Source of the DNA: Spirochaetia bacterium
Lineage (GTDB): Bacteria; Spirochaetota; Spirochaetia; SZUA-6; Bin103
DNA: 64,000 nt
Assembly (NCBI GenBank): GCA_965203905.1
Contig: CBDBDQ010000005.1
Location: forward strand, 224,001-288,000
Direction of reading: 5' to 3'
Shown here: positions 10,578 through 57,219 of the stretch, in pieces
Numbering within the stretch: position 1 is the stretch's first letter
Layout of the letters: every line of letters starts with the position of its first letter
Translations under genes and position numbers: made by a program
The notes under the pieces: model-generated
Told to the model about the DNA's origin: nothing
The model's input: the letters and a program-made list of their open reading frames with translations, nothing else
Databases searched by the model: none

Positions 10578-13500
10578 CTAGCGCGTGTCTATCCAGTGGC
10601 GCCGGCGCTGGAACGGATAGCTCGGCAGGGAGATCCGGCGCCGCGACTCTCCCGCAAACAACCCCGCGAAGGAAACGGAAAGTCCCGCCACGTAGGCGGC
10701 CGCGACAGCCTCGGCGAAGGTGGCGTCCCCGGCGTCCGGCGCAGCGTCGCCGGGTGACTCGGCGCTGCTCGCCCGCACCACCGGAATGCCGCAGCCATCC
10801 GCCAGCGCGTCCGGCAGCGCGCGCGGCGCCGTCTCCACGATCGCCTCGATCCCCAGATCGGCGAGCGTCCTCAGGCAGGTGGCGATCGCCGGTCGTGGCG
10901 CCGGTGATCGCCACTCGGCAACGTCAACGGTCGCCCCCGGCTCGACAATGCGGCCGGTGGAGCAATCCACCAGTGGAGGGGTCCCGCCGGTCAGCGCGAC
11001 CGATGTCGGCTCGCCCGTGCCGCGTTCGGCGGCGGCCAGGCGCAACCCCTCCTCCAGGTCCAACATTCCCGTCGCCTGCGCCGCAGCCAGCGCCCCCAAC
11101 CCGTGCCCGATCACGGCACTTGGCCGGATTCCCACACTCGACCAGAGCGCCGTCAGCGCGCACTGCAGCGCGTAGATCGCCGACCGGGTCCACGCCTCGC
11201 CGTCCAGGTGCCTCGTCGCCCCGTGCCGTTCGCACATCGCCTCCAGCAGGGAGGCGCCGCGCACCGGTCTCAGCGTGTCGTCGCAACGATCCAGCACGGC
11301 GCGCACCACCGGCTCGTTGGCATACAGCTTCGCGCCAATCTCCAGCCAGTGGCCGGCTTGCCCGGTGTAGGCAAACGCCATCTTCGTGGCTGTCCGCGGC
11401 TCAGCGAACTCCGGCGCCTCAGCCAGCGCCAGTAGTCGTTGCCGCAGCGATTCGGCATCGCGGAACACCACCGCTGCCCGGTGGGCAAAGTGGCTGCGTC
11501 CGACGCCCGCGGTCCAAGCCATGTCCGCGAGCAAGCCATCACCGGCGCCGCCTTGCAGTTCTCCACTCCGTTCGTCGAGCCAAGTCAGATAGCGCCCGAC
11601 CAGCTCGCGCAACGCGTCATCCGACTTGGCCGACAACGGCAGCAGGCGCACCGCGTGCGGTTTCAGTCCCTCCTGCTGCGCCGCCACCTGGTGTGCGGCT
11701 CCGACGGGCCACCGCCACTCCTCGGTGCCGCTTGCCGCCTGGTACGCCTCCACCACGACGTGGGCGTTGGTGCCGGATACACCGAACGCGCTCACCCCGG
11801 CGCGCCGTGTTCGGCCGCCGTTCGCGGGCCAATCGGTCGGCCGCCCGGTAACCCGTACCGGCAACCGGTCCCAGTCCAGGTTCGGGTTCGGGTCATGGAA
11901 GTGCAAGTGCCGCGGAATCACTCCGCGCTGCATCGCCAGCACGGTCTTGATGAGACCGGCCATTCCGGCGGCCGACTCCAGGTGGCCGAGGTTGGTCTTC
12001 ACCGAGCCGATCAACAGCGGTTGGTCCGCCGCCCGGCCCCGCCCGTACACCGCTGCCGCCGCCTGCACCTCGATCGTGTCGCCGAGTTCCGACCCCGCCC
12101 CGTGGGCCTCCAGGTAGTCCACTTCCGACGGCGCTACCCCGGCACACGTGAGTGCCGCTTCGATAACCCGCTCCTGCGCCGGGCCGTTCGGCACGGTCGG
12201 TCCAGCGCTCGCCCCGTTCTGGTTGACCGCCGTGCCGCGGACTACGCCCCAGATGCGGTCGCCGTCCGCCTCCGCGTCATCAAGCCGCTTCAGCACGACC
12301 ATCCCGCAGCCCTCGCTGCGCACGAATCCGGCCGCTGCGGCATCGAAGGTTTTGCAGCGGCCGTCGGGAGACAGCATCCTCAACTCGGCCATCTCTCTGG
12401 TCAGGCCGGCCGACAGCACCGCGTTCACGCCTCCCACCAGGGCCAGATCCACTTCACCCTGGCGCAAGGCGGTGACCGCCTGGTGCACCGCCACCAGCGA
12501 CGACGCGCAGTTCAGCACCACCGGCATGGTCGGCCCCTCCAGACCCAACTGGAAGGCAACGCGTCCGACCGCCATGCTCCCGGCGGTGCCCAGGTAGTTG
12601 ACGTCCGCGCTGCCGGCACGCATCAGGTCCCGGTACTCGCTGGGGGCAATGCCGGCAATCACGCCGGTGCGCGTGCCCCGCAACCGGTCCGGATCGATCC
12701 CCGCGTCGTCGAGCGCCTGCCAACTCGTCTCCAGCAGCATCCGTTGCTGCGGATCCATCGTTCGCGCCCCGATCGGCGGAATCCCGAAGAAGCGTGCGTC
12801 GAAGCGGTCGATGCCGTCGACAAACCCGCCGCGCCGGGCGAAGCTATCTTCCAGCGCGGGGTCTCCGGAAACACCACTCCAGGAACCGCCATCGCGCCGG
12901 CCCTCGGTCACGGCGTCCACACCGGCTTCGAGCTGATGCCAGAAGGCCGCCAGATCGGGAGCGCCGGGGAAACGGCAGGCCATGCCGACGATCGCGATGC
13001 CGTCACCCGTGCGTTCCCCGGAAGAGGGCGGCGACGCCGGCGGCTCGGGCTCCGACTGGGGCGCCGTCGCGGCGGCGGGCTCGCCGAGCGCGTCGACGAG
13101 GTGACCGGCCAGTGCGGCGATGTCCGGGTAGTCGAACACCACGGTATTGGGCGCCACGTACTCCCCGGCACACGCCCGACCAAGACGGTTGCGCAGTTCT
13201 ACCGCCATCAGCGAGTCCATGCCGAGCTCGAAGAACCCCACCGTTGGGGCCGGCGGCGACGGCAGCCTGAGCACCGACTGCACCTCGCGCTGCAGGAACG
13301 ACACCGCCACACCCGTGCGCTCCTCCTCTGGAGCGCTGCGCAGGCGCGAAGGCAGGTCGTCGGACGCGTCGGCGCCATCCGTTCCAGCCTCGGCGATGGC
13401 CGCAAGCTGATCCTCCAGCAGCGGCGGACGGCCGTCGAGCATCTCCCCGAACAGCGGCCAGTCGACCGCCATCACCGCGGCAGCCGTGGAGTCCGCGCGC

Positions 13501-16500
13501 AGCAGCCGGTCGAACGCCCTCAGCCCCTGCTCGACGCTGATCCAGCCGGCTCCGGATGCGGCCCGGCGCCCGGCAATCCGTTCCCGCTGCTCCTCGGCTT
13601 CGCCGAGCCCCGACCACGCCCCCCAGGCGATCGTTTGACCGGGGAGTCCGAGCGCGCGCCGGTGCGCCGCGAGCTGATCGAGGAACGCATTGGCCGCCGC
13701 GTGATTCGCCTGACCCGGATTGCCCAGTACGCCCGCGACGCTCGAGAACAGCACGAAGAGGTCCAGATCGCGTGCCGCGGTCGCGCGGTGCAGGTGCCAG
13801 GCGCCCAGCACCTTGGGCCAGAGCACCTGCTCGAACCGCTGCCAGCTCTGGTTGCCGAGCGCGGCGTCGGCCAGCACGCCGACGCTGTGGATCACGCCCG
13901 CGAGGGGCGGCAGCTCCCGGTCCATGCGCGCCAGCATCGCGTCCAGCGCCGCCGCGTCGGTCACGTCCGCCATTTCGACCTGCACCGTGGCGCCGCGATC
14001 CCGGAGCGTGGCGATGATTTCCTCCGCGGCCGCGTCCGGCGCCCGCCGGCCGTTCAGGACGATCGCGCCGGCGCCCCGTTCCACGAGCCAGCCGGCCACG
14101 GCGCAGCCGATCCCACCCAGACCGCCGGTCACCAGGTAGGTCCGGTCTCGGCGCAACTCTCCACTCGCGAGCGGCGGCGAGGTGAGAACGATCTTGCCGA
14201 TGTGGCGGGCGTCGCGCATGAATCCCATCGCCGCGCCCGCCTCGGCAAGCGGCCACAGGCTGTGTACCAGGGGGCTCAACTCGCCCGCCGCAAGCCTGGC
14301 CATCACCTGCTGCAGGGCGGCTCCCGCACGCGCGGGATCGTCCTGCTTCAGTACATCCAACTCCAGAATGGAGTAGGCGACATCCGGCCGCACCACCGCC
14401 ATTTCTTCCTTGCTCAAGATGTCGCGCCGGGACAACTCCACGAACCGTCCGCCGTGCGCCAGACAGGACAGGCTGGCCGCGATGAAGCCTTCTCCGGTCA
14501 GGCTGTTCAACACCACGTCGACACCCGTGCCACCGGTAGCTTCGAGGATCTCTTTCCCGAACGCCGTCGAGCGGCTGTCGCACACGCGGCTTGCGCCGAG
14601 CGACCGCAGGAAAGCCCGCTTCGGCGCGCTGGCAGTCGCAAAGACCTCCGCTCGGGCAGCTTGCGCCAGTTGGATCGCCGCCAGCCCCACACCCCCCGCG
14701 CCGGTGTGAACCAGAACCCGTTCGCCGGGGCGCAACTCCGCCAGATCGTAAGCCAGGGCCGCCGTCACGAACGCCGTCGGCATGGTGGCCAGCGCTGCGA
14801 CCGGTAGCGTGGCCGGCGCATGCGCCACCAGCTCTTCGCGGGTAACCGCCTGCGGTCCGAATGTCCCGAACGCGAGACCCACTACGCGGTCGCCCACGGC
14901 AACGGCGGTCACCTCGGAGCCGACCTCGACGATCCGGCCGCACAGCTCCTCGCCGAGGGGCCCCTCGCCGATGACGCGGATCCCCCGCAGCACGTCCTGG
15001 AAGTTCAGGCCGCGGGCTTCCACCTCGACGCGCACTTCCTTTGGCTCCAGGGATGGCGCCGGCCGCGGTTCGGGGTGGAGGTTCTCCAGCGCACCGCCGG
15101 GGTCGGGCGCCAGCACCCAGTCCGACCCCGCCGGCAGCACGAGACGCCCGGCCGTGGCGCCTGCCCGCGCCAGACGCGCGACCTGGCGGCGCCCGGCGCG
15201 GTACGCGATGTGATCCTCCGCGCCGGGGGACAGCAGCTCACTTGCCAGATCGGCCACCGCGATCGGGGCGTCGGGGTCGAGATCGATCATCCGCGCCTGC
15301 AGATGGGGCGCCTCGCGGGACACCACCTTGCCGAAGCCCCACAGCGTCGCGCCGGCGAGTTCGCCGCCGCGCTCCCGCTCCAGCACCTGCGCGCCACGGG
15401 TTACGAACCACACCCCGGAGGCGGTTGCCGCATCGGCGTCGGCCAGCCCCTGCACCAGCGCCAGGGCGCTCCCCGCCACGCGACGCGTGTCCTGCGCCAT
15501 CTCAGCGGCGGTCGCATGCGAGCCGTGACCATCCAGCGCCGCGAAGTGCACCACGCCGCCGAGCGGCACGCCGGCCGGCAGGTCCGCGACGAGCGAACGC
15601 CAGGACTCACGCCGCAGCACGTCGACGGCGCGCATTACAACTCCGCGTTCGTCCGCGGCGAATGCGCCGTCGGTAGGCGACTCGCCGCTCGCCACCACCA
15701 CCGCCTGGTTCTGCGCCGCGAGCTGTGCCGCAAGCTCCACCGCCACCCCGCAACGGTCCGCGACCACCAGCCATGCGCTCCGCGGCGGAGTCACTTCTGC
15801 CGGCCCCCGCGCCACGATCACGCCGCGATCGGGCAACACGTCCGCGTCCGACTCGTCCACCCCCAGAATCTCGATCTCCCCGAAGCCCGCATCGGCGAGC
15901 GCCTGCCGCCACACGGCCGGCCCGGCGAGGGCATGGTGCGGTCGATAGCGATCGGCAAACCGCCACCAGCCGTCCAACTGACCGAAGACGAGATCCATCC
16001 AGGCACGTGCGCGCTGGTTCTCGAGCGCCACGAGCTGCCCGGATGGGGCGAGCAGTTGCCGGCAGTGGTTCAGCGTCTCGTTCAGGTAGCGGGTGGCGTG
16101 CAGGACGTTGGCGGCAATCACCAGATCATAGCCGTACGCATCGAAGCCCTGGGCCAACGGATCCGTCTCAATGTCCAACACCCGGTAGGCGATCGGGGCG
16201 CCGCTGTCGGCGAATCGCGCTTCCGCTTCGGCAAAGAAGCCCGCCGAGATGTCGGTGTAGGTGTAGTCGAACCGACCGGCCGGCAGTGCCGGCAGGACGC
16301 AGGATGTCGCCGATCCGGTTCCCGCGCCGACCTCCAGCACGCGCAGCCGCCGGCCTTCCGGTAGATCGGCCACGAGTGCGGAAACCGCGTCGCCCAGCAT
16401 CCGATTGGCCGCTCGCCACACCGGCGCCTTGCGATACAAATCGGCCGCGTTCGGCTCCACCTCGCCGAACAGCAGCCCCAACGGATCCTCCCGTCCGCGC

Positions 16501-19500
16501 AGCACGTCCGGCAAGGCACCGGCGCAGCGCCGAAACAGCGCGATCTCGTGCACCGCGTGAGGGTAGCGTTCGCTCATGCCGCGTGCGAATCGTTCGGGAT
16601 CGGGCGGCACGTCCTGCGGCAACGAGTCCTCGATTCCGGTCACCACGACGAAACCGTCGTCCTGCTCCGCCAGCACCCCGGCACGGGCCAGCAGTTCCAG
16701 CATGCGGCGGAACAGGCGGGCGTGTTCGGCTTCGACCCGCAGCTTCTGGCGGAGCTCGTCGGCGTCGATTACCGCGCCCGCCGGCCGCTGCCATCCAAGC
16801 TTGTCGAGAGTCGCAAGCGCATAGCACGCGGCAACCCGCTCCTGGTCCGCGATCAGCGCGGCCCGGTCCCGAGCCGCAACCCCCTCCGCTGCGAGGAAGT
16901 CGGTGAACAGGCGCGAATCCGCCGCGACGCTTGACGGCTGCCGAAGAAACCCAGCCGGCAGCACGCTCGGGGCCAGCGCGCGGTCCCGCCACACCACTTC
17001 GTACAGCAGCTCCTGCACCCCTTCGACGGCCGCAAGCAGCGCCGACCGGGTCGCCCGCTTCACCAGATACCCACGCAGCTCACCGGCCAGCATTCCGCCC
17101 GCGTGGTAGATCAGCAGGTCCGCGGTCAGGACCTCGGGCTCCTCGCTGTGCCCTTCCGGCACCGGTGCGGGCGGGGGCTGGGACATGCGCAGATGGCAGA
17201 TCAACCGATCCGGCAGTGGCCCTCGCAACCACAGCCGCTGCCAGCCGAACGGCAGGTAGGTGGCCCGGACGGCGCCGGCAGGGCTCCACGCGGCCGCCAT
17301 TACCTGAAAGCAGCCATCGAGCAGCAGCGGATGGACTGTCAGCCCGTTGCGGCCCAGCTCCTCCGGGAACTCCACCTCGGCCACCGCCTCGCCGGCCCCG
17401 GACCAGACCCGCCGCAGCGTGCGGAACGACGCACCGAGCTCGATCCCGACACCCGCCTTGGCACGGTAGAAGGCCGGTACGTCCACCGGCTCCATGCCCG
17501 CCTTGAGCGTTTCCAGGTTCACGTGAGAGGGCGCGGCCGGCGTGCGGGCGGCGGTCCCGGAAGCAACCTGCGCTTCCGCGTGAAGGGTCCAGCCCTCGTC
17601 GTCCGGCCCCCGGCTGAGGATCTGCACGCGGCGGGGTGCTTCCTCGGTTGCGTCGAGGAGCACCTGGACCCTGCGCGCCGCCGCGGCGCCGGCCCCGTCC
17701 GCCGCGTCCCCTTCCGGGAGCAGCAGCGGGCTGTGCAGTTGCATCTCCTCGACGACGGCCGCTCCGCCGCCCTCGGCAGCGGCGGCCGCCGCTGCCATGG
17801 CGCCGTAGAGCGCGCCCGGCGCCAGCAGCCGGCCGAACACCCGGTGATCGGCCAGCCACGCCGGATCGTCCGGCAGCAACTCGGTGTCGAATGCCACCTC
17901 ACCGCGCGCCGACTCGTGCCGCTCGCCCAGCAGCGGGTGGCCGGCGCCCGCCCGGCGCCGGCGCGGCGCCGGGACCCAGTGGCGCGCGCGCTGAAACGGA
18001 TACCCCGGCAGCGAGATGCGCCTGCGCTCCTCGCCCGCGAACAGCCCCTCGAACCGGATCGGGAGCCCAGCCTCGTAGGCGCCGGCGACCGCCGCCGCGA
18101 ACGCGCCTTCCACCTCTGCGGGCGGCGTGTCGCGCGCGGGGCGCCGCAGGCTGGCCAGCACCGCCGGCGCTGCATCCGGCGCAGCCGCCGGCCACGCCAG
18201 GACCGCCATCGGCCCCAGTACCGCATGCGGGCCGAGCTCCACGAGCGCCTCCACGCCGAGCTCGGCCAGGGTCTCCACCGCCTGGCGAAACTGCACCTTC
18301 TCGCGCGCGTGGCGGCGCCAGTAGGCGGCGTCCGGCACCGTGCCCGGCGCCAGCAGGCGGCCGCTCAGGTTGCTCACCAGGGGAACCGCCGGGGCCGCGA
18401 ACGTGACCCGCTCCAGCGCAGCCTCCAGGTCATCCAGGGCCGGCTCCACCAGCGCGCTGTGGTAGGCGGGGCTGTGGCGCAGCAATCTTACTCGCACCTG
18501 CTCCGTCTCGAACCGCTCCAGGATCGCCGCGACGTCCGCCGCCGGACCGCTGAGCACCTGGTTCGAGCCGTTGTCCACGGCCACGCACAGCCCCATTCCG
18601 GTGGCGGCTGCGTTGTGTTCCTCCACCGCCGCCGCGACCCGCCGGGCCGGCGCGAACACCACCGCCATCGCTCCCGCCTCGGGCAGCTCCCCGATCAGGG
18701 CGCCGCGCGCCGCCGCGAAGCGCAGCCCGTCCTCCAGGCTGAACACGCCCGCAGTCTGCGCCGCCGCAATCTCGCCCAGGCTGTGCCCGACCACCACGTC
18801 CGGGCGAATCCCCAGGCTCGCCCACAGCGCGGCCAGCGCGCACTCCAGCGCGTAGATCGCGGGCTGCTTCCAGGCCGGCTCATCCAGACTGCCGGCAGCA
18901 CCCGGGCGCCCGAACATGACGTCCAGCAGGGAGGCGCCACGCTCGGCACGCAGCAGCGCATCGCAGCGGTCCAGCACGGCGCGCACCACCGGCTCGCTCG
19001 CGTAGAGCGTCTGTCCCATACCGGCCCACTGGCTGGCCTGCCCGGTAAAGGCGAAGGCTACCTTCGGCGCCGCCTTCGCCGCCGAACGCGGCGCCGCGCC
19101 GGCGTCCGGCTCGGCCACCGCGAGCAATCCCTCGCGCAGCGACTCCGCGTCGCGGAACACCACGCCGGCGCGGTAGCTGAAGTGGCCGCGGCCGACCCCG
19201 GCCGTCCAGGCCAGATCCGACAGCGGCGGGTCGGCTGCGGCACCGCCCCCGTCCAGTTCCGCGCCGTGCTCGTCGAGCCAGCCCAGGTATCCGCGTGCCA
19301 GGTCGTGCAGCGCCGCCTCCGACTTGGCCGACAGCGGCAGGAACCGGCACGCACGGGCGGCGAGCCCGTCACGGGGCGCCGGCACCTCGGCGACCGGCGC
19401 GGGCAGCGACACGGCAATCCGTTTGGCGGGGCCGGCGGCCCAGTGCGCTTGCTCGACGCCGGGGCGGGCGCCGTTCCCCTCCAACACCAGGTGCGCGTTG

Positions 19501-20828
19501 GTGCCCGACCATCCAAAGCCGCTTACGCCGGCCAGCGGTGGATGCTCGGCGTGCGTCGGCCAATCCGTCGCCTCCGCGGTGACCTGCAACGGCAGCCGCT
19601 CCCAGTCCATCTGCGGACTCGGCTTGCGGAAGTGCAGGTGAGGGGGAATGATCCCCTGTTGCATCGCCAGCACCACCTTCATCACGCCGGCGACGCCGGC
19701 CGCCGACTCCAGGTGGCCGATGTTGGTCTTCACCGAGCCGATCAGCAGCGGCCGGTCGGCCGGACGCCCGCGGCCGTAGGCCGCTCCGGTGGCGTTGGCC
19801 TCGACCGGGTCGCCCACCTCGGTGCCGGTGCCGTGCGCCTCCACGTAGTCCACGTCCGCCGGCGCGATACCGGCGCGCTCCAGCGCCGCTTCGATCACTC
19901 GCTGCTGCGCCGGGCCGCTGGGCACGGTCAGGCCCGGGCTCGCCCCGTCCTGGTTCAGCGCCGAGGCGCGGATTACCGCCCAGATGCGGTCGCCGTCCGC
20001 CTCCGCCTCGGCCAGCCGCTTCAGCACCAGGATGCCGCAGCCCTCACCGCGGACGTAGCCGTTGGCCGCGGCGTCGAACGTCTTGCAGCGCCCGTCCGGC
20101 GCCAGCATGCCGGCGTTGGCGCGCAACTCCAGCAACCGCCCGGACAGAATGACGTGCACGCCGCCGGCCAGCGCCAGGTCGGCCTCGCCGCGCAGCAGGC
20201 CCGACGTCGCCTGATGCAGCGCCACCAGCGACGAGGAGCAGGCGGTATCGACCGCCATGGCCGGTCCCTCCAGACCCAGAGCGAAGGCCACCCGGCCAAT
20301 GGCGGTGTTGTAGGAAGAGCCGCTGACCATGTACAGGCTGGCCGCCGGTTCGGCGGGGTCTGCGCCGTCCAGGATCAGGCCGCGGTAGTCGTTGTTGCTG
20401 ATTCCCGCGTACACGCCGGTGCGGCTGCCGGCCAGCCGTTCCGGATCGATCCCGGCGTCCTCCAGCGCGCGCCAGCTCGTCTCCAGCATCAGGCGTTGTT
20501 GCGGGTCGAGCAGTTGCGCCTCGACCGGCGAAATGCGAAAGAACGCGGCGTCGAACAGGTCAACCTCGTCGAGGTAGGCGCCGAACCGGCATGCCGGACG
20601 CCGCTCCGCGGTGTCCGGGAAAAGCTGGCCGACCCGCCCGACCCCGGAACCCGGTTCGCCCTCGGTGATCAGGTCCGCGCCGGCGGCGAGCCGGCGCCAG
20701 AACTCGGCCGGGCTGTCGGCGCCCGGAAAGCGACACGCCATGCCCACGATCGCGATGCGTTGGTCGCCGCGAACTATCTGTCTCCCCTCAGGTTCAGCGC
20801 GCGTTTTTTTGGAACGAAAGGTCGTCAT
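10578..20828 (-). CDS. supA: Type I PKS, SupA-type: KS-AT-DH-cMT-ER-KR-ACP-KS-AT(inactive)
   Basis: KS DTACSSS/HGTGT/NIGH; AT GHSLG; DH HRVFGRLLAP; MT LEVGAGTG; ER HTGAGGVG; KR TGGLGGIG; ACP GMDSL; KS2 LNCASS/HGAGS/NLGH; AT2 GHGLG; no TE. Matches the sponge-symbiont ubiquitous PKS architecture. Confidence 0.92.
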   Translation of the reverse strand: MTTFRSKKTRAEPEGRQIVRGDQRIAIVGMACRFPGADSPAEFWRRLAAGADLITEGEPGSGVGRVGQLFPDTAERRPACRFGAYLDEVDLFDAAFFRISPVEAQLLDPQQRLMLETSWRALEDAGIDPERLAGSRTGVYAGISNNDYRGLILDGADPAEPAASLYMVSGSSYNTAIGRVAFALGLEGPAMAVDTACSSSLVALHQATSGLLRGEADLALAGGVHVILSGRLLELRANAGMLAPDGRCKTFDAAANGYVRGEGCGILVLKRLAEAEADGDRIWAVIRASALNQDGASPGLTVPSGPAQQRVIEAALERAGIAPADVDYVEAHGTGTEVGDPVEANATGAAYGRGRPADRPLLIGSVKTNIGHLESAAGVAGVMKVVLAMQQGIIPPHLHFRKPSPQMDWERLPLQVTAEATDWPTHAEHPPLAGVSGFGWSGTNAHLVLEGNGARPGVEQAHWAAGPAKRIAVSLPAPVAEVPAPRDGLAARACRFLPLSAKSEAALHDLARGYLGWLDEHGAELDGGGAAADPPLSDLAWTAGVGRGHFSYRAGVVFRDAESLREGLLAVAEPDAGAAPRSAAKAAPKVAFAFTGQASQWAGMGQTLYASEPVVRAVLDRCDALLRAERGASLLDVMFGRPGAAGSLDEPAWKQPAIYALECALAALWASLGIRPDVVVGHSLGEIAAAQTAGVFSLEDGLRFAAARGALIGELPEAGAMAVVFAPARRVAAAVEEHNAAATGMGLCVAVDNGSNQVLSGPAADVAAILERFETEQVRVRLLRHSPAYHSALVEPALDDLEAALERVTFAAPAVPLVSNLSGRLLAPGTVPDAAYWRRHAREKVQFRQAVETLAELGVEALVELGPHAVLGPMAVLAWPAAAPDAAPAVLASLRRPARDTPPAEVEGAFAAAVAGAYEAGLPIRFEGLFAGEERRRISLPGYPFQRARHWVPAPRRRRAGAGHPLLGERHESARGEVAFDTELLPDDPAWLADHRVFGRLLAPGALYGAMAAAAAAAEGGGAAVVEEMQLHSPLLLPEGDAADGAGAAAARRVQVLLDATEEAPRRVQILSRGPDDEGWTLHAEAQVASGTAARTPAAPSHVNLETLKAGMEPVDVPAFYRAKAGVGIELGASFRTLRRVWSGAGEAVAEVEFPEELGRNGLTVHPLLLDGCFQVMAAAWSPAGAVRATYLPFGWQRLWLRGPLPDRLICHLRMSQPPPAPVPEGHSEEPEVLTADLLIYHAGGMLAGELRGYLVKRATRSALLAAVEGVQELLYEVVWRDRALAPSVLPAGFLRQPSSVAADSRLFTDFLAAEGVAARDRAALIADQERVAACYALATLDKLGWQRPAGAVIDADELRQKLRVEAEHARLFRRMLELLARAGVLAEQDDGFVVVTGIEDSLPQDVPPDPERFARGMSERYPHAVHEIALFRRCAGALPDVLRGREDPLGLLFGEVEPNAADLYRKAPVWRAANRMLGDAVSALVADLPEGRRLRVLEVGAGTGSATSCVLPALPAGRFDYTYTDISAGFFAEAEARFADSGAPIAYRVLDIETDPLAQGFDAYGYDLVIAANVLHATRYLNETLNHCRQLLAPSGQLVALENQRARAWMDLVFGQLDGWWRFADRYRPHHALAGPAVWRQALADAGFGEIEILGVDESDADVLPDRGVIVARGPAEVTPPRSAWLVVADRCGVAVELAAQLAAQNQAVVVASGESPTDGAFAADERGVVMRAVDVLRRESWRSLVADLPAGVPLGGVVHFAALDGHGSHATAAEMAQDTRRVAGSALALVQGLADADAATASGVWFVTRGAQVLERERGGELAGATLWGFGKVVSREAPHLQARMIDLDPDAPIAVADLASELLSPGAEDHIAYRAGRRQVARLARAGATAGRLVLPAGSDWVLAPDPGGALENLHPEPRPAPSLEPKEVRVEVEARGLNFQDVLRGIRVIGEGPLGEELCGRIVEVGSEVTAVAVGDRVVGLAFGTFGPQAVTREELVAHAPATLPVAALATMPTAFVTAALAYDLAELRPGERVLVHTGAGGVGLAAIQLAQAARAEVFATASAPKRAFLRSLGASRVCDSRSTAFGKEILEATGGTGVDVVLNSLTGEGFIAASLSCLAHGGRFVELSRRDILSKEEMAVVRPDVAYSILELDVLKQDDPARAGAALQQVMARLAAGELSPLVHSLWPLAEAGAAMGFMRDARHIGKIVLTSPPLASGELRRDRTYLVTGGLGGIGCAVAGWLVERGAGAIVLNGRRAPDAAAEEIIATLRDRGATVQVEMADVTDAAALDAMLARMDRELPPLAGVIHSVGVLADAALGNQSWQRFEQVLWPKVLGAWHLHRATAARDLDLFVLFSSVAGVLGNPGQANHAAANAFLDQLAAHRRALGLPGQTIAWGAWSGLGEAEEQRERIAGRRAASGAGWISVEQGLRAFDRLLRADSTAAAVMAVDWPLFGEMLDGRPPLLEDQLAAIAEAGTDGADASDDLPSRLRSAPEEERTGVAVSFLQREVQSVLRLPSPPAPTVGFFELGMDSLMAVELRNRLGRACAGEYVAPNTVVFDYPDIAALAGHLVDALGEPAAATAPQSEPEPPASPPSSGERTGDGIAIVGMACRFPGAPDLAAFWHQLEAGVDAVTEGRRDGGSWSGVSGDPALEDSFARRGGFVDGIDRFDARFFGIPPIGARTMDPQQRMLLETSWQALDDAGIDPDRLRGTRTGVIAGIAPSEYRDLMRAGSADVNYLGTAGSMAVGRVAFQLGLEGPTMPVVLNCASSLVAVHQAVTALRQGEVDLALVGGVNAVLSAGLTREMAELRMLSPDGRCKTFDAAAAGFVRSEGCGMVVLKRLDDAEADGDRIWGVVRGTAVNQNGASAGPTVPNGPAQERVIEAALTCAGVAPSEVDYLEAHGAGSELGDTIEVQAAAAVYGRGRAADQPLLIGSVKTNLGHLESAAGMAGLIKTVLAMQRGVIPRHLHFHDPNPNLDWDRLPVRVTGRPTDWPANGGRTRRAGVSAFGVSGTNAHVVVEAYQAASGTEEWRWPVGAAHQVAAQQEGLKPHAVRLLPLSAKSDDALRELVGRYLTWLDERSGELQGGAGDGLLADMAWTAGVGRSHFAHRAAVVFRDAESLRQRLLALAEAPEFAEPRTATKMAFAYTGQAGHWLEIGAKLYANEPVVRAVLDRCDDTLRPVRGASLLEAMCERHGATRHLDGEAWTRSAIYALQCALTALWSSVGIRPSAVIGHGLGALAAAQATGMLDLEEGLRLAAAERGTGEPTSVALTGGTPPLVDCSTGRIVEPGATVDVAEWRSPAPRPAIATCLRTLADLGIEAIVETAPRALPDALADGCGIPVVRASSAESPGDAAPDAGDATFAEAVAAAYVAGLSVSFAGLFAGESRRRISLPSYPFQRRRHWIDTR

Positions 20829-24348: not shown

Positions 24349-26025
24349 TCAGTGGGTGGTGGCGCCGTAGCTGGCGGAGGAGACCAGGCGCGCGTACTTG
24401 GCCAGCGCGCCGCGGGTGTAGGGGATGGGACGCTCCGGGAGGGCGGCGATCCGCTGCCGGATCTCCTCGTCGGACAGCTCCAGCTGGATCGACTTGTGCT
24501 CCAGGTCGAGGGCGATGATGTCGCCCTCCCGAACTGCCGCGATCGGGCCGCGGGCCTGCGCCTCGGGGGCGATGTGGCCGACCACGATGCCGTGGCTGCC
24601 ACCGGAGAAGCGGCCGTCGGTGATCAGCGCCACGTCCGCGATCAGGCCGGCGCCGGCGATTGCCGAGGTGAGCGCCAGCATCTCGCGCATGCCGGGACCG
24701 CCGCGCGGGCCCTCGTAGCGGATCACCAGCACGTCGCCCTTGTTCACCTGGCCCTTGAGAATCGCCTGCAGCGCGCCCTCCTCGGCGTCGAACACCCGCG
24801 CCGGGCCGCGGTGGCGGCGCACCGTCACCCCGGACGACTTCAGCACCGCGCCCTCCGGCGCCAGGTTGCCCTTGATCACCAGGATGCCGCCGCTTTCCTT
24901 GTGCGGCTTGTCCACCGGGTACACCACGTCCTGCCCGTCGAGGTGCACTGCGACGTCGGCCAGGTTGTCGGCGATGGTGCGCCCGGTGACGGTGATGCAA
25001 TCGCCGTGCAGCAGGCCGGCGTCGAGCAGCATGCGCATCACCATCGGCACCCCGCCCACCTGGTCCAGGTCCTTCATCACGTAGCGCCCGGCGGGCTTGA
25101 GGTCGGCCAGGGTCGGGGTGGTCTCGGCGATCGGGTTGAAGTCGTCGATGGTCAGGTCCACCTCCGCCTCGTGGGCGATGGCCAGCAGGTGCAGCACGGC
25201 ATTGGTGGAGCCGCCGAGCGCCATCACGATGCGGATCGCGTTCAGGAACGCCTCGCGGGTCATGATGTCGCGCGGCTTCAGGCCGCGGCGCAGACACTCG
25301 ATCACCGCCGTGCCGGCGGCGCGCAGGTCCTGTTCCTTGCGCGGATCCACCGCCGGGATCGAGGAGTTCCCCGGCAGCGCCATGCCCATGGCTTCCACCG
25401 CGGAGGCCATGGTGTTGGCGGTGTACATGCCGCCGCACGCCCCCTGGCACGGGATCGCGGCGCGCTCGATGCCGGCGCGTTCTTCCTCGTCGATCCGGCC
25501 GGCGCTGAAGGCACCCACCGCCTCGAAGGCAGAGATGATGTCCACGTCGCGGCCCCGGAACACGCCCGGCAGGATGGTGCCGCCGTACACGAACACGCTG
25601 GGGAGGTTCATGCGCGCCATCGGCATCACGGTGCCGGGGATGGTCTTGTCGCAGCCGCCGATGCCGATGATGGCGTCGAACTGGTGGCCGATGGTGACCA
25701 GCTCGATGGTGTCGGCGATGGCGTCGCGGCTCACCAGCGAGGCCTTCATGCCCTCGTGGCCCATCGCCTCGCCGTCGGTCACCACGAAGGTGTTGTAGCG
25801 CAGCGGGAAGCCGCCCGCCCGGCGCACGCCGTCCTTGGCCTGCTCGGCGAGGTCGTCCAGGTGCATGTTGCACGGCGTCACCTCGGAGCCGGCGCTGGCG
25901 ATGCCCACCAGGGCGCGCTCGAAGTCGGCGTCGTCCATGCCAACGGCGCGCAGCATGGAGCGGTTGGGCATGCGCTCGATGCCGGCGGTCATGTTGCGGC
26001 TGCGACTGTTCAGTGGTGTGCTCAC
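24349..26025 (-). CDS. ilvD: Dihydroxy-acid dehydratase
   Basis: [59 protein letters not shown]; GTG start with AGGAG RBS. Confidence 0.97.
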
Positions 26026-26254: not shown

Positions 26255-26614
26255 CAAGTCCCCTGATTCTCGACCTACATGCCAAATCCTTTGCACAAAC
26301 TCGCAAACTATTGTAACGCATCGATTTACGTTCCCAAGAGTGGTATAGACGTAAGATGGCACTCCATCGATCCAGTCGCGAAATGGCGAATTTCTTGTGG
26401 GTTTTCGACTGATACGCCAGTTCGTGAATTTGACGGATTGGTCCTTGTCTCATTGCCCTACGATGCTGACTATTCTCGTCAATTAATTGTAGAGACACGA
26501 TTTAATAGCGCCGGCTCTACATTGTGCGTAGGAGACCGGACCATCGCGAAATGGCGAACCTCGGAACGTTCCGCCGATTCGCGGCCTGGCGAGAGAGAAT
26601 TCGGTGCTCAGGCG
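26255..26614 (+). repeat. Dispersed ~355-bp AT-rich non-coding element, copy 1
   Basis: Aligns end to end with the reverse complement of 54519-54870 (51/60 identical over 26305-26364). Confidence 0.9.
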
Positions 26615-26678
26615 AGCATTCGGGAAGTCGTGCGGGTCGTGCGTCGGGCCGTGGATCGGTTATTCTTGCCTCAGCCTC

Positions 26679-27592
<914 letters not shown>

Positions 27593-27596
<4 letters not shown>

Positions 27597-53496: not shown

Positions 53497-54309
53497 TCAC
53501 GTCGAGGTGGCGATCGGAAGTTCCGGCGGGCTCTCGGGAACGCCTTCGTCGGTGTCGTTGCGGCCCGGAGAATCGCCGTAGGCGGCGGCCAGATGCTCGG
53601 CCACCAGCACCTGGCCGGGGGGACCGACGGCAATCACCCGCCGATTGAGCAGCATTACCTGTTCGAGGTGGTGCGCGACTGCAAGGTTGTGGGTCGAGAC
53701 CATGACCGCGATGCCCTTGCCCACGGCGTCAAGGGTGGCGGTGAGTTGCGCGCCTGCCTCTGCGTCGAGCCCGGCGTACGGCTCGTCGAGCAGCATGATC
53801 TCCGCCTCTTGCGCCAGGGCGCGGGAGATGAACATGCGCCGCCGCTGGCCACCTGAGAGTTCCCCGATCTGGCGCCGCCGCAAGTCGCTAATCGCGACCC
53901 GCTCCATGGCTTCGGCGACGATCGCGCGGTCACGGCGCCGCAGGAAGCGCCCGTATCCTACGCGTGCGGTGCGCCCCATGGTAACCACGTCCTCCACCGT
54001 CGCTGGAAAACGCCAGTTGAGGTTGGCGTTCTGCTCAATGTAGGCGATGCACACATGGCGCTCCGACTGGCTGCCCGAGACCTTCACCGAGCCCGCCGCT
54101 GGCCGGTGGATACCCGCGATCACCTTGAACAAGGTGCTCTTGCCGGCGCCGTTGGGGCCTACCACGGCGGTGCGTTCGCCGCTCTCCAGACGGAACGAAA
54201 CCCCGTCGAGCGCACAGCGCCCGGCATAGTACGCCCGTACCCCGTTGAGCTCGAGGGTTACCGCACCCGCGACATGGGCCGGCTCACGGCTGCCGCTGCG
54301 GCCCTTCAT
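53497..54309 (-). CDS. znuC: Metal (Zn/Mn) ABC transporter ATP-binding protein
   Basis: GPNGAGKS, W.FPATV.DVV.MG, LSGGQRRR, LLDEP; start uncertain. Confidence 0.85.
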   Translation of the reverse strand: MKGRSGSREPAHVAGAVTLELNGVRAYYAGRCALDGVSFRLESGERTAVVGPNGAGKSTLFKVIAGIHRPAAGSVKVSGSQSERHVCIAYIEQNANLNWRFPATVEDVVTMGRTARVGYGRFLRRRDRAIVAEAMERVAISDLRRRQIGELSGGQRRRMFISRALAQEAEIMLLDEPYAGLDAEAGAQLTATLDAVGKGIAVMVSTHNLAVAHHLEQVMLLNRRVIAVGPPGQVLVAEHLAAAYGDSPGRNDTDEGVPESPPELPIATST

Positions 54310-54386
54310 CACCGACGCCACGGGAATGAACCGTCGACCATTAGCGCGGACTTTCTGCCTGTTTTCATGACGTTCCACAACATACT

Positions 54387-54407
54387 TCGAGATATCATTA
54401 TCATTAG
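54387..54407 (-). promoter_or_regulatory. Putative Fur-family (Zur-like) operator upstream of znuC
   Basis: CTAATGATAATGATATCTCGA; 16/21 identical to the site upstream of znuA. Confidence 0.55.
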
Positions 54408-54518
54408 TAGCCCGCCCCGGCAACCGCTCGTTTCGACCACCCGGCCGGCGTGGACGCCGCGCCAGCCGAATCGCCAGTTGCCAGCAAATTGCCTACTCCC
54501 AAATTCTCCCCCAATCAA

Positions 54519-54870
54519 CGCCTAAGCACCGAATTTCCTCTTACGAATTCGCGAATCGGCGGACGAATCTGCAGGTTCGCGATTTCGCGATGGATGGGTC
54601 GCATAAGGGATGGCTCTAGAACCGGTGCAATTAATCGTTTTCCTACAATTAATTGTTGAGAATAGTCTGCATCTCGTGCCAGTGAGATCAGGGGGCCAAA
54701 CCGTCAAATTCGCGAATTCGCGTATCAGTCGTAAACCCACAAGAAATTCGCGATTTCGCGACTTGACCGATAAGAGTGTCATCTCGAGTCTATACAAGCC
54801 TTGGGAACGCAAATCGATGCCTTACAATAGTTTGTGCAAAGATCAAGCATATATGGCGAGGATCGGGGCT
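54519..54870 (-). repeat. Dispersed ~355-bp AT-rich non-coding element, copy 2 (inverted)
   Basis: Reverse complement aligns with 26255-26614. Confidence 0.9.
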
Positions 54871-54882
54871 CATGTTTTTCAA

Positions 54883-54910
54883 TTGACAAGGTTGCCAGAG
54901 TCCGTACAGT
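54883..54910 (+). promoter_or_regulatory. Putative sigma70-type promoter of the permease-SPFH operon
   Basis: TTGACA-N16-TACAGT, 33 bp before the TTG start. Confidence 0.4.
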
Positions 54911-54942: not shown

Positions 54943-57219
54943 TTGTTGAGCATATTCACCGGATTCTTCGATTTTCTCTGGTCGTCGTTCCTGTTGCTGG
55001 CGCCCATGCTGCTGCTGGGCCTGTTCCTGGCCGGGGTGATTCACGTCATGATTTCGCGGCAGTCCATTCTCCGCTGGCTGCGCCACGACAGCTTGAAGTC
55101 GGTCAGCACGAGCGCGGCGGTCGGAGTGCCGATACCGCTGTGCAGTTGCTCGGTCGTGCCGGTGGTCGCCGAGATGCACCGCAAGGGCGCATCGCGTTCG
55201 TCCTGCATGTCGTTCCTCATCACTGCTCCAGAGACCGGCGCCGACTCGATTCTCATTACCAACGCGTTCTTCGGATTCCTGGCCGCGGTTGCGCGTCCCG
55301 TGATCAGCTTCATCACCGCGGTGGTGGCCGGCATCTTCTGCATCGGCCTGATCCGCGGCCGTCCTGCGCCGCACCACGACCACGACCACGACGATCATGA
55401 CCATGAGCACGACCACCACGGACTCGGTCATGCGGGCCATGACCACGCCGAGCACGAGCCGCTGCTGCCCGGCAGCGACGATTGCTACGTACGGCCCTCG
55501 CAACTGAAGGCAGCCCTGACCGGCTGGGCGCGGAGAACGGTGCAGAGCGTCACCGAGAGGATAGGGCGACGCAAGACCGTCACCTGGGTCAAGCCCGACT
55601 TCTACCGCTCGGCTCCTGTCGCCGAGCAACCCCGCGCCAGCCACAGCGGACCGCCCAATGGTGCCGAGGACCTGGATTTTAAGCACATCATCAAGCACGT
55701 GTTCCGCTACGGGTTCGTCGAGATAGCCGACGACATCCTGTTCTCGCTGCTGGTGGGCGTCGCCCTGGGAGGCGTGCTCTACCTGGTGATACCCAGCGAA
55801 CTGATGGCCAACGAATACGCACGCTGGATCTCCTATCCGATCATGGTGCTGGTGGGGGTGCCACTCTACATCTGCGCCTCGGCGAGCACACCCATCGCCG
55901 CCGCGCTGGTCGCCCGCGGCGTCAGTCCGGGGGCAGCGCTGATCTTTCTCATGACCGGACCGGCTACCAACACCGGTACCATCGCGATCATCGCCAACCA
56001 GTTCGGTGCCCGCTTCGCATCGGTGTATGTGACCGTGGTCATCGTCGTGACCGTCGCGATCGGCATCCTGGTCGACACCCTGGTGCTCGCCGCCGGTGCC
56101 ACCCTCTCGGTCAACCTGGGTGCCGTCCAAGCTCCGGCCATCGAGATCCTGGAATGGACCGGTGCCTTCCTCCTCATCGCCCTGATTATCTGGCGGTTCC
56201 AGGCCGGCGCCCTGAAGAGCGGTTACCAGGATCTGGTGTCCAACCTGCGGACCTTCTCCCCGCCCTGGAAGCGCCTCTTGCGCCGTCTGACCCGCGGGCG
56301 GCGGCTGGCCGGAGTGATCTCTCCCGCTGCGCCGCTGGGCATGTCGCTCTGGATTCTGCTGATCGTGGCGTTTCTGGCCACCGGCTTTACCGCGGTGCCT
56401 CCGGCGGCGGTGGGCTACGGCCGGCTGTTCGGTGCGGTGGTCTGGCGCGACCTGCCACCGGGCCTGCACTACCTGGCGCCGCGGCCGCTGGCCAGCGTCG
56501 ACCACTGGCCGATCCGGGAAGTGAAGTCGGTCACCAACGATGTGCCGTTCGAGTACCTGTCGGGCGAGTTGAACCTGCTGTCGCTCACGGTGAACGTGCA
56601 GTACCGGGTGCGGGATCCCTACGTCTATCACTACCGGACAGAGGATCCGGAGCGGGCGATTACCGACAGCGTGCGCGACGAGGTGCGTGCGTTTGTGGCC
56701 GTCGGCGACCTGAATCAGCTGCTCAACGTCCGGCGGGAGGAGTTGGAAGCGACGATTCACCGGTTGTTCTCGGGCTCCTCGGACTCGACGGCCCCGGTGC
56801 TGGATGCAGTCGAACTGATCAAGGTGAATCTCGTGGCCGTCCAGCCGATCGCTGAGACGATGAGCGCGTTTCGGGAAATCTCCAGCTCCCAGGAGGACCG
56901 CGAACGCATCATCGTCGACGCGCAGCGGTTCATGGTCACCTTGATTCCGAGGGCCCACGGTAACGCGGTGTACGAGGTCGAGCAGGCGGCCGGCGAGGCG
57001 TTCCGGAACGTGACCGCGACCGCCGCGGAGGCCGATGCCATCCGCGTGGTGTCGCGGGCGGTGCAAGCGGCCCCCGACGTGCTCCAGAGCATGCTCTGGC
57101 GCGAGAAACTGGAAACGGCCCTCGCCGGCGACAACTACAAGATCATCGTCCCGAGTCAGGACAGCCTGGCCAAGGTGGCGCTGTGGAAGCGATCGGCGGA
57201 GGAGCACACGGACCGATGA
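54943..57219 (+). CDS. ArsP/DUF318 (SO_0444-like) metal permease with His-rich loop fused to a C-terminal SPFH/HflK-like domain
   Basis: PLCSCSVVP, SFLITAPETG, PLYICASASTPIA, FLMTGPATN; HHDHDHDDHDHEHDHH loop; C-terminal RLFG...PPGLHY..P, VQYRV.DP, AFREI.S..ED.ER, IPRAHG.A. Confidence 0.85.
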   Translation: MLSIFTGFFDFLWSSFLLLAPMLLLGLFLAGVIHVMISRQSILRWLRHDSLKSVSTSAAVGVPIPLCSCSVVPVVAEMHRKGASRSSCMSFLITAPETGADSILITNAFFGFLAAVARPVISFITAVVAGIFCIGLIRGRPAPHHDHDHDDHDHEHDHHGLGHAGHDHAEHEPLLPGSDDCYVRPSQLKAALTGWARRTVQSVTERIGRRKTVTWVKPDFYRSAPVAEQPRASHSGPPNGAEDLDFKHIIKHVFRYGFVEIADDILFSLLVGVALGGVLYLVIPSELMANEYARWISYPIMVLVGVPLYICASASTPIAAALVARGVSPGAALIFLMTGPATNTGTIAIIANQFGARFASVYVTVVIVVTVAIGILVDTLVLAAGATLSVNLGAVQAPAIEILEWTGAFLLIALIIWRFQAGALKSGYQDLVSNLRTFSPPWKRLLRRLTRGRRLAGVISPAAPLGMSLWILLIVAFLATGFTAVPPAAVGYGRLFGAVVWRDLPPGLHYLAPRPLASVDHWPIREVKSVTNDVPFEYLSGELNLLSLTVNVQYRVRDPYVYHYRTEDPERAITDSVRDEVRAFVAVGDLNQLLNVRREELEATIHRLFSGSSDSTAPVLDAVELIKVNLVAVQPIAETMSAFREISSSQEDRERIIVDAQRFMVTLIPRAHGNAVYEVEQAAGEAFRNVTATAAEADAIRVVSRAVQAAPDVLQSMLWREKLETALAGDNYKIIVPSQDSLAKVALWKRSAEEHTDR

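Follow-up and report, generated by a model that had tools for sequence, protein, structure and literature searches.

The repeat that occurs twice in the window (the whole stretch of 64,000 nucleotides analysed here, part of contig C5 of the source genome, labelled G000) is, we conclude with considerable confidence, an old non-coding MITE with IS1380-type ends, from a lineage that lands upstream of promoters. As an object, the MITE is nothing unusual; the point of interest is the target rule. Elements with these ends often carry a -35-like hexamer at a fixed distance from one end, and that distance follows the length of the target duplication.

An earlier note on this DNA had taken the two stretches for inverted homologues, and BLASTN confirmed this (77.4% identity over 332 nt, E 8.6e-65). 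The limits it gave, 26255-26614 and 54519-54870, were not correct and have been replaced by those in Table 1. The element is also not confined to the two copies that had been counted. Iterative nhmmer searches of the genome gave 36 hits, which were merged to ~22 loci with weak reverse-strand hits on palindromes within copies set aside, in agreement with the dispersed family that the note had proposed. Eight of the 22 loci are full length (347-377 bp) and share 66-81% identity, indicating that the family is old. Several further descriptions held: the window copies are AT-rich islands in relative terms (48-50% GC against 66% for the contig), both are intergenic between divergent genes, the right end of each faces an ABC ATPase gene, and conservation is not at the protein level, with 0 reading frames that stay open in all 8 full copies. 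A decayed protein gene was rejected as the origin of the repeat on this last ground, together with the lack of any match to the IS1380-family transposase gene of this genome.

Aligned copies have sharp common ends and unrelated flanks. The left end begins CCCTGATCCTCGCC and the right end closes GGCGAGGATTTGGG, forming an imperfect inverted repeat. Where the earlier note had seen neither terminal inverted repeats nor a target duplication, both window copies were found to carry imperfect terminal inverted repeats (TIRs) of 14-17 bp, and copy 1 is bracketed by a perfect 5-bp duplication, AAGTC; copy 2 has a 3-bp match only. Exact flank matches of 3-6 bp were observed at 6 of the 8 two-ended loci of the genome (5, 5, 6, 4, 3 and 3 bp) and were absent at the other two. 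IS1380-family ends begin CC, and the MITE ends also border three IS1380-family transposase remnants in the genome. A match to a known IS end, which the note had named as evidence against its own reading, was thus found, and among the options it had listed the MITE is the one supported by the TIRs, the target duplications and the IS1380-type ends. An orphan ncRNA was rejected in favour of a MITE. The viral contigs searched held 0 matches to the MITE right end.

Table 1. Features of the two MITE copies and their surroundings (positions in the window).
Feature	Position	Strand	Basis or remark
ilvD-type dehydratase, left neighbour of copy 1	24349..26025	-	own TTGACA-17-TACCGT site at 26183-26155
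Target-site duplication, left, AAGTC	26256..26260	+	flank comparison
MITE copy 1, 364 bp	26261..26624	+	alignment, nhmmer
Left TIR, copy 1	26261..26277	+	same type as left end of IS1380 remnant, G000:C5:7149382
Promoter-like site TTGGGA-16-TACAAT, copy 1	26310..26337	-	faces out of left end; consensus match only
Hairpin module 1, copy 1	26376..26427	+	arms nearly invariant, 10 copies
Hairpin module 2, copy 1	26544..26584	+	15-nt motif of module 1 at its start
Right TIR, copy 1	26608..26624	+	same type as right ends of IS1380 remnants, C3:66213 and C5:3940921
Target-site duplication, right, AAGTC	26625..26629	+	flank comparison
Candidate host promoter GTGCGT-16-TATTCT	26639..26666	+	weak; 14 nt outside copy 1 right end
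DrrA-like ABC ATPase, right neighbour of copy 1	26679..27596	+	profile match
Mn/Zn-type ABC ATPase ORF, right neighbour of copy 2	53497..54423	-	best MntA, AztA, both below cut-off
MITE copy 2, 360 bp	54509..54868	-	3-bp flank match GAG only
Right TIR, copy 2	54509..54525	-	imperfect repeat
5' arm of hairpin module 2, copy 2	54576..54590	-	motif match
5' arm of hairpin module 1, copy 2	54747..54761	-	site of single compensatory change
Promoter-like site, copy 2	54801..54828	+	faces out of left end
Left TIR, copy 2	54852..54868	-	first 14 nt = left end of IS1380 remnant
Predicted host sigma70-type promoter TTGACA-16-TACAGT, 10/12	54883..54910	+	exactly 14 nt outside copy 2 left end
SO_0444-family Cu/Zn efflux permease + HflK-like C-terminal part, one ORF	54943..57219	+	behind promoter 54883-54910

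An end scan placed the left TIR 97 nt upstream of one of the transposase remnants (C5:7147906-7149382), and two related elements that survive as 3' halves, one on C3 and one on C5, end in the right TIR. The remnant protein matches PF13701 with 78 bits (cut-off 34.7) and scores 179.7-180.1 with the NCBIfam IS1380 model NF033539, at its cut-off of 180; its matches were to IS1380 models only. The locus of this remnant (L012, G000:C5:7146406-7150713) is without a right end, and its frame is open for 856 residues, into unrelated coding sequence. In a quick tree the remnant fell within a clade that has full support, well apart from the other IS1380 proteins that served as controls. An intact partner transposase was not found in the assembly (98.7% complete). 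Intact relatives with 48-78% identity carry the record labels Spirochaetia, Verrucomicrobiota, Acidobacteriota, Planctomycetota, Chloroflexota and others, and also occur in genomes of the same family as the source. More distant relatives share 35-48% identity. These intact IS relatives have the TIRs of the MITE, and 50 two-ended IS loci showed 5-bp duplications in 24 cases and 6-bp duplications in 3. The predicted fold of an intact relative (pLDDT 86.8) is closest to the Tn5 transposase (Foldseek E 4.6e-10). Residues D169, D171, D244 and E375 are invariant in 39 transposase relatives, and the DDE triad probably lies among them. The PLSDB plasmids yielded no close relative of the clade, the best full-length matches among those listed having 22-26% identity, and no homology was detectable between the MITE interior and the IS interior. 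The shared ends, target duplications and dispersed copies point to a partnership between the MITE and this divergent IS1380 clade, in which a DDE transposase of the clade would recognise the 14-17 bp ends and move the MITE in trans.

The flanks of elements with these ends were searched for -35-like hexamers, defined as starting with TTG and having at most 2 mismatches to TTGACA, the sigma70 -35 consensus. The IS flank set comprised 142 ends, of which 129 were unique; own-genome loci and those below 40% identity were left out. A hexamer was found at offset 14 in 29/69 right and 12/60 left flanks, with 4 further at 15, and any offset other than 14 has at most 4. At least one end with a hexamer at 14 was present in 30 of the 53 source genomes of this set. 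Metagenome loci retrieved by the right-end sequence alone provided an independent sample; among the matches listed, 32/117 ends had the hexamer at 14 and 12/117 at 15, against a background of 1.3%. Of the 121 metagenome loci among the matches listed, at least 41 are other MITEs, 92-220 bp long, that share these ends and vary inside. In the source genome, 7/31 ends had the hexamer at 14 and 2/31 at 15 (background 0.5%); 3 of the 31 are ends of IS remnants, 2 of them positive, and 2 lie at a tandem junction. The signal is absent at the remaining 22/31 ends, which is partly expected because only one end faces a promoter and the copies are old. As controls, two distant multi-copy IS1380 elements from genomes of the same family gave 1/30 and 0/23 ends (1/53). 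IS1380 ends from two genomes, G179 and G056 (4 loci), had unclear limits and were left out of the counts. Relatives also have MITEs, 94-207 bp long, that share these ends but have unrelated interiors, at L289 and L311 (G004), L292 (G018) and L286 (G008); in the G018 copy the duplication is 5 bp and TTGACC starts at 14 nt.

The geometry was examined in 107 unique two-ended elements; the 57 with a 4-8 bp duplication were counted (46 of 5 bp, 11 of 6 bp) and the 50 without one of this length were dropped. TTG was present at duplication length + 9 outside one end in 46/57 elements, compared to 2.1 expected by chance. This held for 38/46 of the 5-bp and 8/11 of the 6-bp elements, for 26/30 MITEs and 20/27 IS, and on the right side in 26, the left in 20 and both sides in 0. 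Duplications of 5 bp pair with 14 nt and those of 6 bp with 15 nt (38:0 vs 1:8, Fisher p 2.9e-8; this and the other p-values overstate, as loci from one genome are not independent), so the target keeps its position on the promoter side and shifts at its far edge. A -10 box, scored as TAnnnT at spacer 16-18, follows 30/90 (33%) of the targeted hexamers, whereas 2/129 (1.6%) of the remaining hexamers from these flanks have one, as do 1.6% across the genome. In flanks without TTG, a -10 box was found at offsets 36-39 in 10/133 (p 0.0013). By consensus matching, this enrichment suggests that the targets look like whole promoters rather than bare hexamers.

Copy 2 fits the rule, as its predicted TTGACA-16-TACAGT promoter starts 14 nt outside the left end and is likely to be the insertion target, with a 3-bp flank match where the rule predicts 5. 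Copy 1 fits weakly: neither of its flanks has TTG at 14 or 15, and the candidate ahead of the ABC ATPase start at 26679, GTGCGT at 14 nt followed after 16 nt by TATTCT, fails the TTG test and went undetected in the promoter scan. The left neighbour of copy 1, the ilvD-type gene, has its own TTGACA-17-TACCGT at 26183-26155, 77 nt from the element. Since the fixed-distance promoter of copy 2 is at the end opposite the ABC ATPase gene, before the permease gene, the association of the MITE copies with ABC ATPases looks incidental.

On these statistics, the clade inserts beside sigma70 promoters in either orientation, with a constant 9 nt between the -35 hexamer and the promoter-side edge of the duplicated target. 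The far edge varies by one base, which gives duplications of 5 or 6 bp and distances of 14 or 15 nt. If the hexamer is placed at -35, the target lies around -49 to -45, a region that the alpha C-terminal domain binds and from which activators contact sigma region 4. The transposase complex may be positioned by promoter-bound RNA polymerase, via sigma region 4 or the alpha C-terminal domain, and insertion would leave genes and core promoters intact and separate them from upstream sites. We favour this positioning by promoter-bound RNA polymerase, somewhat cautiously, as the most likely cause, over direct reading of the DNA. If the transposase instead read the TTGAC motif directly by a domain of its own, with no role for RNA polymerase, the rigid protein-DNA contact would suit the fixed 9-nt spacing, and the signal would be concentrated as it is, on CTTG(A/C)C, with no sequence preference in the duplicated bases and almost none across target and spacer. 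Direct reading does not readily account for the -10 box behind a third of the targeted hexamers, nor for its enrichment even in flanks without TTG, although part of this enrichment could stem from selection against genic insertions. We regard direct reading as a tentative alternative, on the unlikely side.

Inside the element are two hairpin modules and an outward promoter-like site, the latter at the same place in 6/8 full copies. Across 10 copies, 1-7% of the cells in the hairpin arms are off consensus, compared to 11-20% elsewhere and 11-15% in the TIRs, making the modules 4-5x more conserved than the remaining element (Fisher about 1e-9; 1/1000 column permutations). The motif-focused conservation that the earlier note had looked for is therefore present, in the hairpin arms, and a cis function for the internal hairpins is possible. 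The element might have arrived as a MITE whose hairpins or outward promoter-like site were then kept by selection, as structured RNA, a protein-binding site or a transposition enhancer. The arm conservation, the kept promoter-like site, the 18 occurrences of the hairpin motif in the genome, all within element loci, and the related palindromic repeats inside many metagenome MITEs with the same ends, among the matches listed, are in line with such selection. Similarity-based copy finding, however, favours intact motifs, gene conversion among repeats could homogenise the arms, and the motif is missing from 23/23 other genomes of the family. A compensatory change was found in 1/40 predicted pairs and the covariation term is unfavourable (+0.29), in stems that are near invariant and give little power. 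Together with 0 Rfam hits at the gathering threshold in the window and weak single-strand folding of the copies (MFE z -1.5 and -2.1), this lends little support to the structured ncRNA that the note had suggested. Selection on the modules thus seems doubtful to us, and their conservation may possibly reflect a cis role, domestication, gene conversion or discovery bias. The core 15-mer has 2 single matches in 91 other genomes, neither in an element. In their paired short motifs, more conserved than the surroundings, the modules presumably resemble REP/REPIN, and we take many interiors of the MITEs among the metagenome loci (L163-L283) to be built of REP-like palindromes. The window motifs differ from REP/REPIN in that they occur only inside the MITE in this genome, which has no GxxExxY partner gene; no paper on such a partner was found in the literature searched.

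Two further readings are far weaker than positioning by RNA polymerase. Random insertion, with survival of those copies that lay harmlessly upstream of promoters, would agree with the old, selection-filtered copies, which seem intergenic in a crude ORF check; it predicts widely scattered distances, whereas the observed peak is one base wide and moves with the length of the duplication, the distant IS1380 elements of same-family genomes show no peak, and we consider it highly improbable. A host-encoded site with no tie to transposition, serving chromosome organisation, recombination or the regulation of ABC genes, which the repeated palindromic motifs and the ABC ATPase genes faced by both window copies might have suggested, is scarcely credible given the IS-type ends, the target duplications, the use of both strands with no pattern along the contig, and the absence of the element from 40/40 relatives by BLASTN and from the orthologous spacer of copy 2 in one relative, G006.

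That spacer is too diverged to give a base-precise empty site. Read contigs from X4 and X6 span the left and the right junction of copy 1, indicating that related strains carry this copy, and no joint skipping copy 1 was present among the joints shown from 4 runs. The neighbours of ilvD differ from the copy 1 locus in 9/9 relatives, and a divergent ABC ATPase beside ilvD was seen at 0/9 of these loci (L315-L323); in several of them ilvD is preceded by a co-oriented gene.

The clade resembles described members of the IS1380 family (IS1247, ISPme1, ISEcp1) in its PF13701/NF033539 transposase, short inverted repeats and 5-bp direct repeats; the available text on IS1247 reports 16-bp inverted repeats and a 5-bp direct repeat (PMC3281130). 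It differs in that the window element carries no transposase and that the two distant IS1380 controls lack the promoter rule. Outward promoters and one-ended mobilisation have been described for the family (PMC9330008, part of the text), and IS1380 elements are over-represented between co-oriented genes in a paper whose available part gives no promoter rule (PMC9208149). As far as the available text goes, a MITE is a short, non-coding element bounded by TIRs and served by a transposase in trans (PMC9330008). Correia elements (CREE), MITEAba12 and TIMEs are alike in being short, non-coding and TIR-bounded, and the window MITE differs from them in its IS1380-type ends. CREE duplicates TA or -10-like sequences, according to the same partly available source (PMC9330008), whereas the IS1380-clade MITE lands upstream of the whole promoter.

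The closest parallel to the target rule is provided by TnGBS, ISLre2 (p-MULT 3) and ISKra4 (p-MULT 4), whose insertions lie 15-17 bp ahead of sigmaA -35 boxes; the paper that reports them, which does not mention IS1380, proposes that they contact the initiation complex of RNA polymerase (PMC3942029). These elements and the IS1380 clade share a fixed distance upstream of the -35 box, but the former have a Mutator-like transposase of an unrelated superfamily, of which the IS1380 clade is not a member. The distance also differs, being the duplication + 9 nt (14-15 nt) in the IS1380 clade, as does orientation, since the clade uses both (26 right, 20 left) and most p-MULT 3 elements are oriented, as stated in the available text (PMC3942029). 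In the literature searched, which lay largely outside subscription journals, such targeting was described for the Mutator-like TnGBS/ISLre2/ISKra4 only, and no description of fixed-distance promoter targeting by IS1380 was found; provisionally, we regard the promoter rule as new for this family. The clade would then be a second, unrelated, single-gene promoter-targeting system, with a sharper rule. That a widespread IS1380 clade and its MITEs evolved docking to sigma70 RNA polymerase independently of Mutator-like elements, with hairpins that aid mobility or insulate the promoter, seems to us an evenly balanced proposition. If true, one strand-transfer position would sit a constant 9 nt ahead of the -35 box while the other shifts by a base, and a single 487-residue transposase would be a natural promoter-finding integrase across several phyla. 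The existence of non-targeting relatives and of intact multi-copy members makes tethering to the polymerase directly testable. The flanks of clade elements also point to probable promoters in bacteria that have not been cultured, and an insertion can separate a gene from regulatory sites further upstream while leaving the gene whole.

Some loci of the source genome have unusual structures. At G000:C5:3286477-3287029, a 5'-truncated and a full copy stand head to tail with 5 nt between them and TTGACA 14 nt past the last end, which suggests that one promoter site was used repeatedly; a similar tandem was seen at L210. Six loci (G000:C5:1272207, 1372292, 3343082, 3391266, 4186654 and 4505541) keep the right end and are missing the left part, and such left-truncated copies often begin just ahead of a hairpin arm. 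A second element type, at C5:3220407-3220685 (+) and C5:2681250-2681510 (-), shares the hairpin motif, has a right end related to that of the window MITE and differs from it in the 3' interior. Elsewhere in the window, an AT-rich palindrome at 54388-54408, upstream of the metal ABC ATPase and kept in G006, presumably resembles a Zur/Fur box, and positions 10578-20828 encode a type I polyketide synthase of 3416 residues with 2 KS, 2 AT, DH, MT, ER, KR and ACP.
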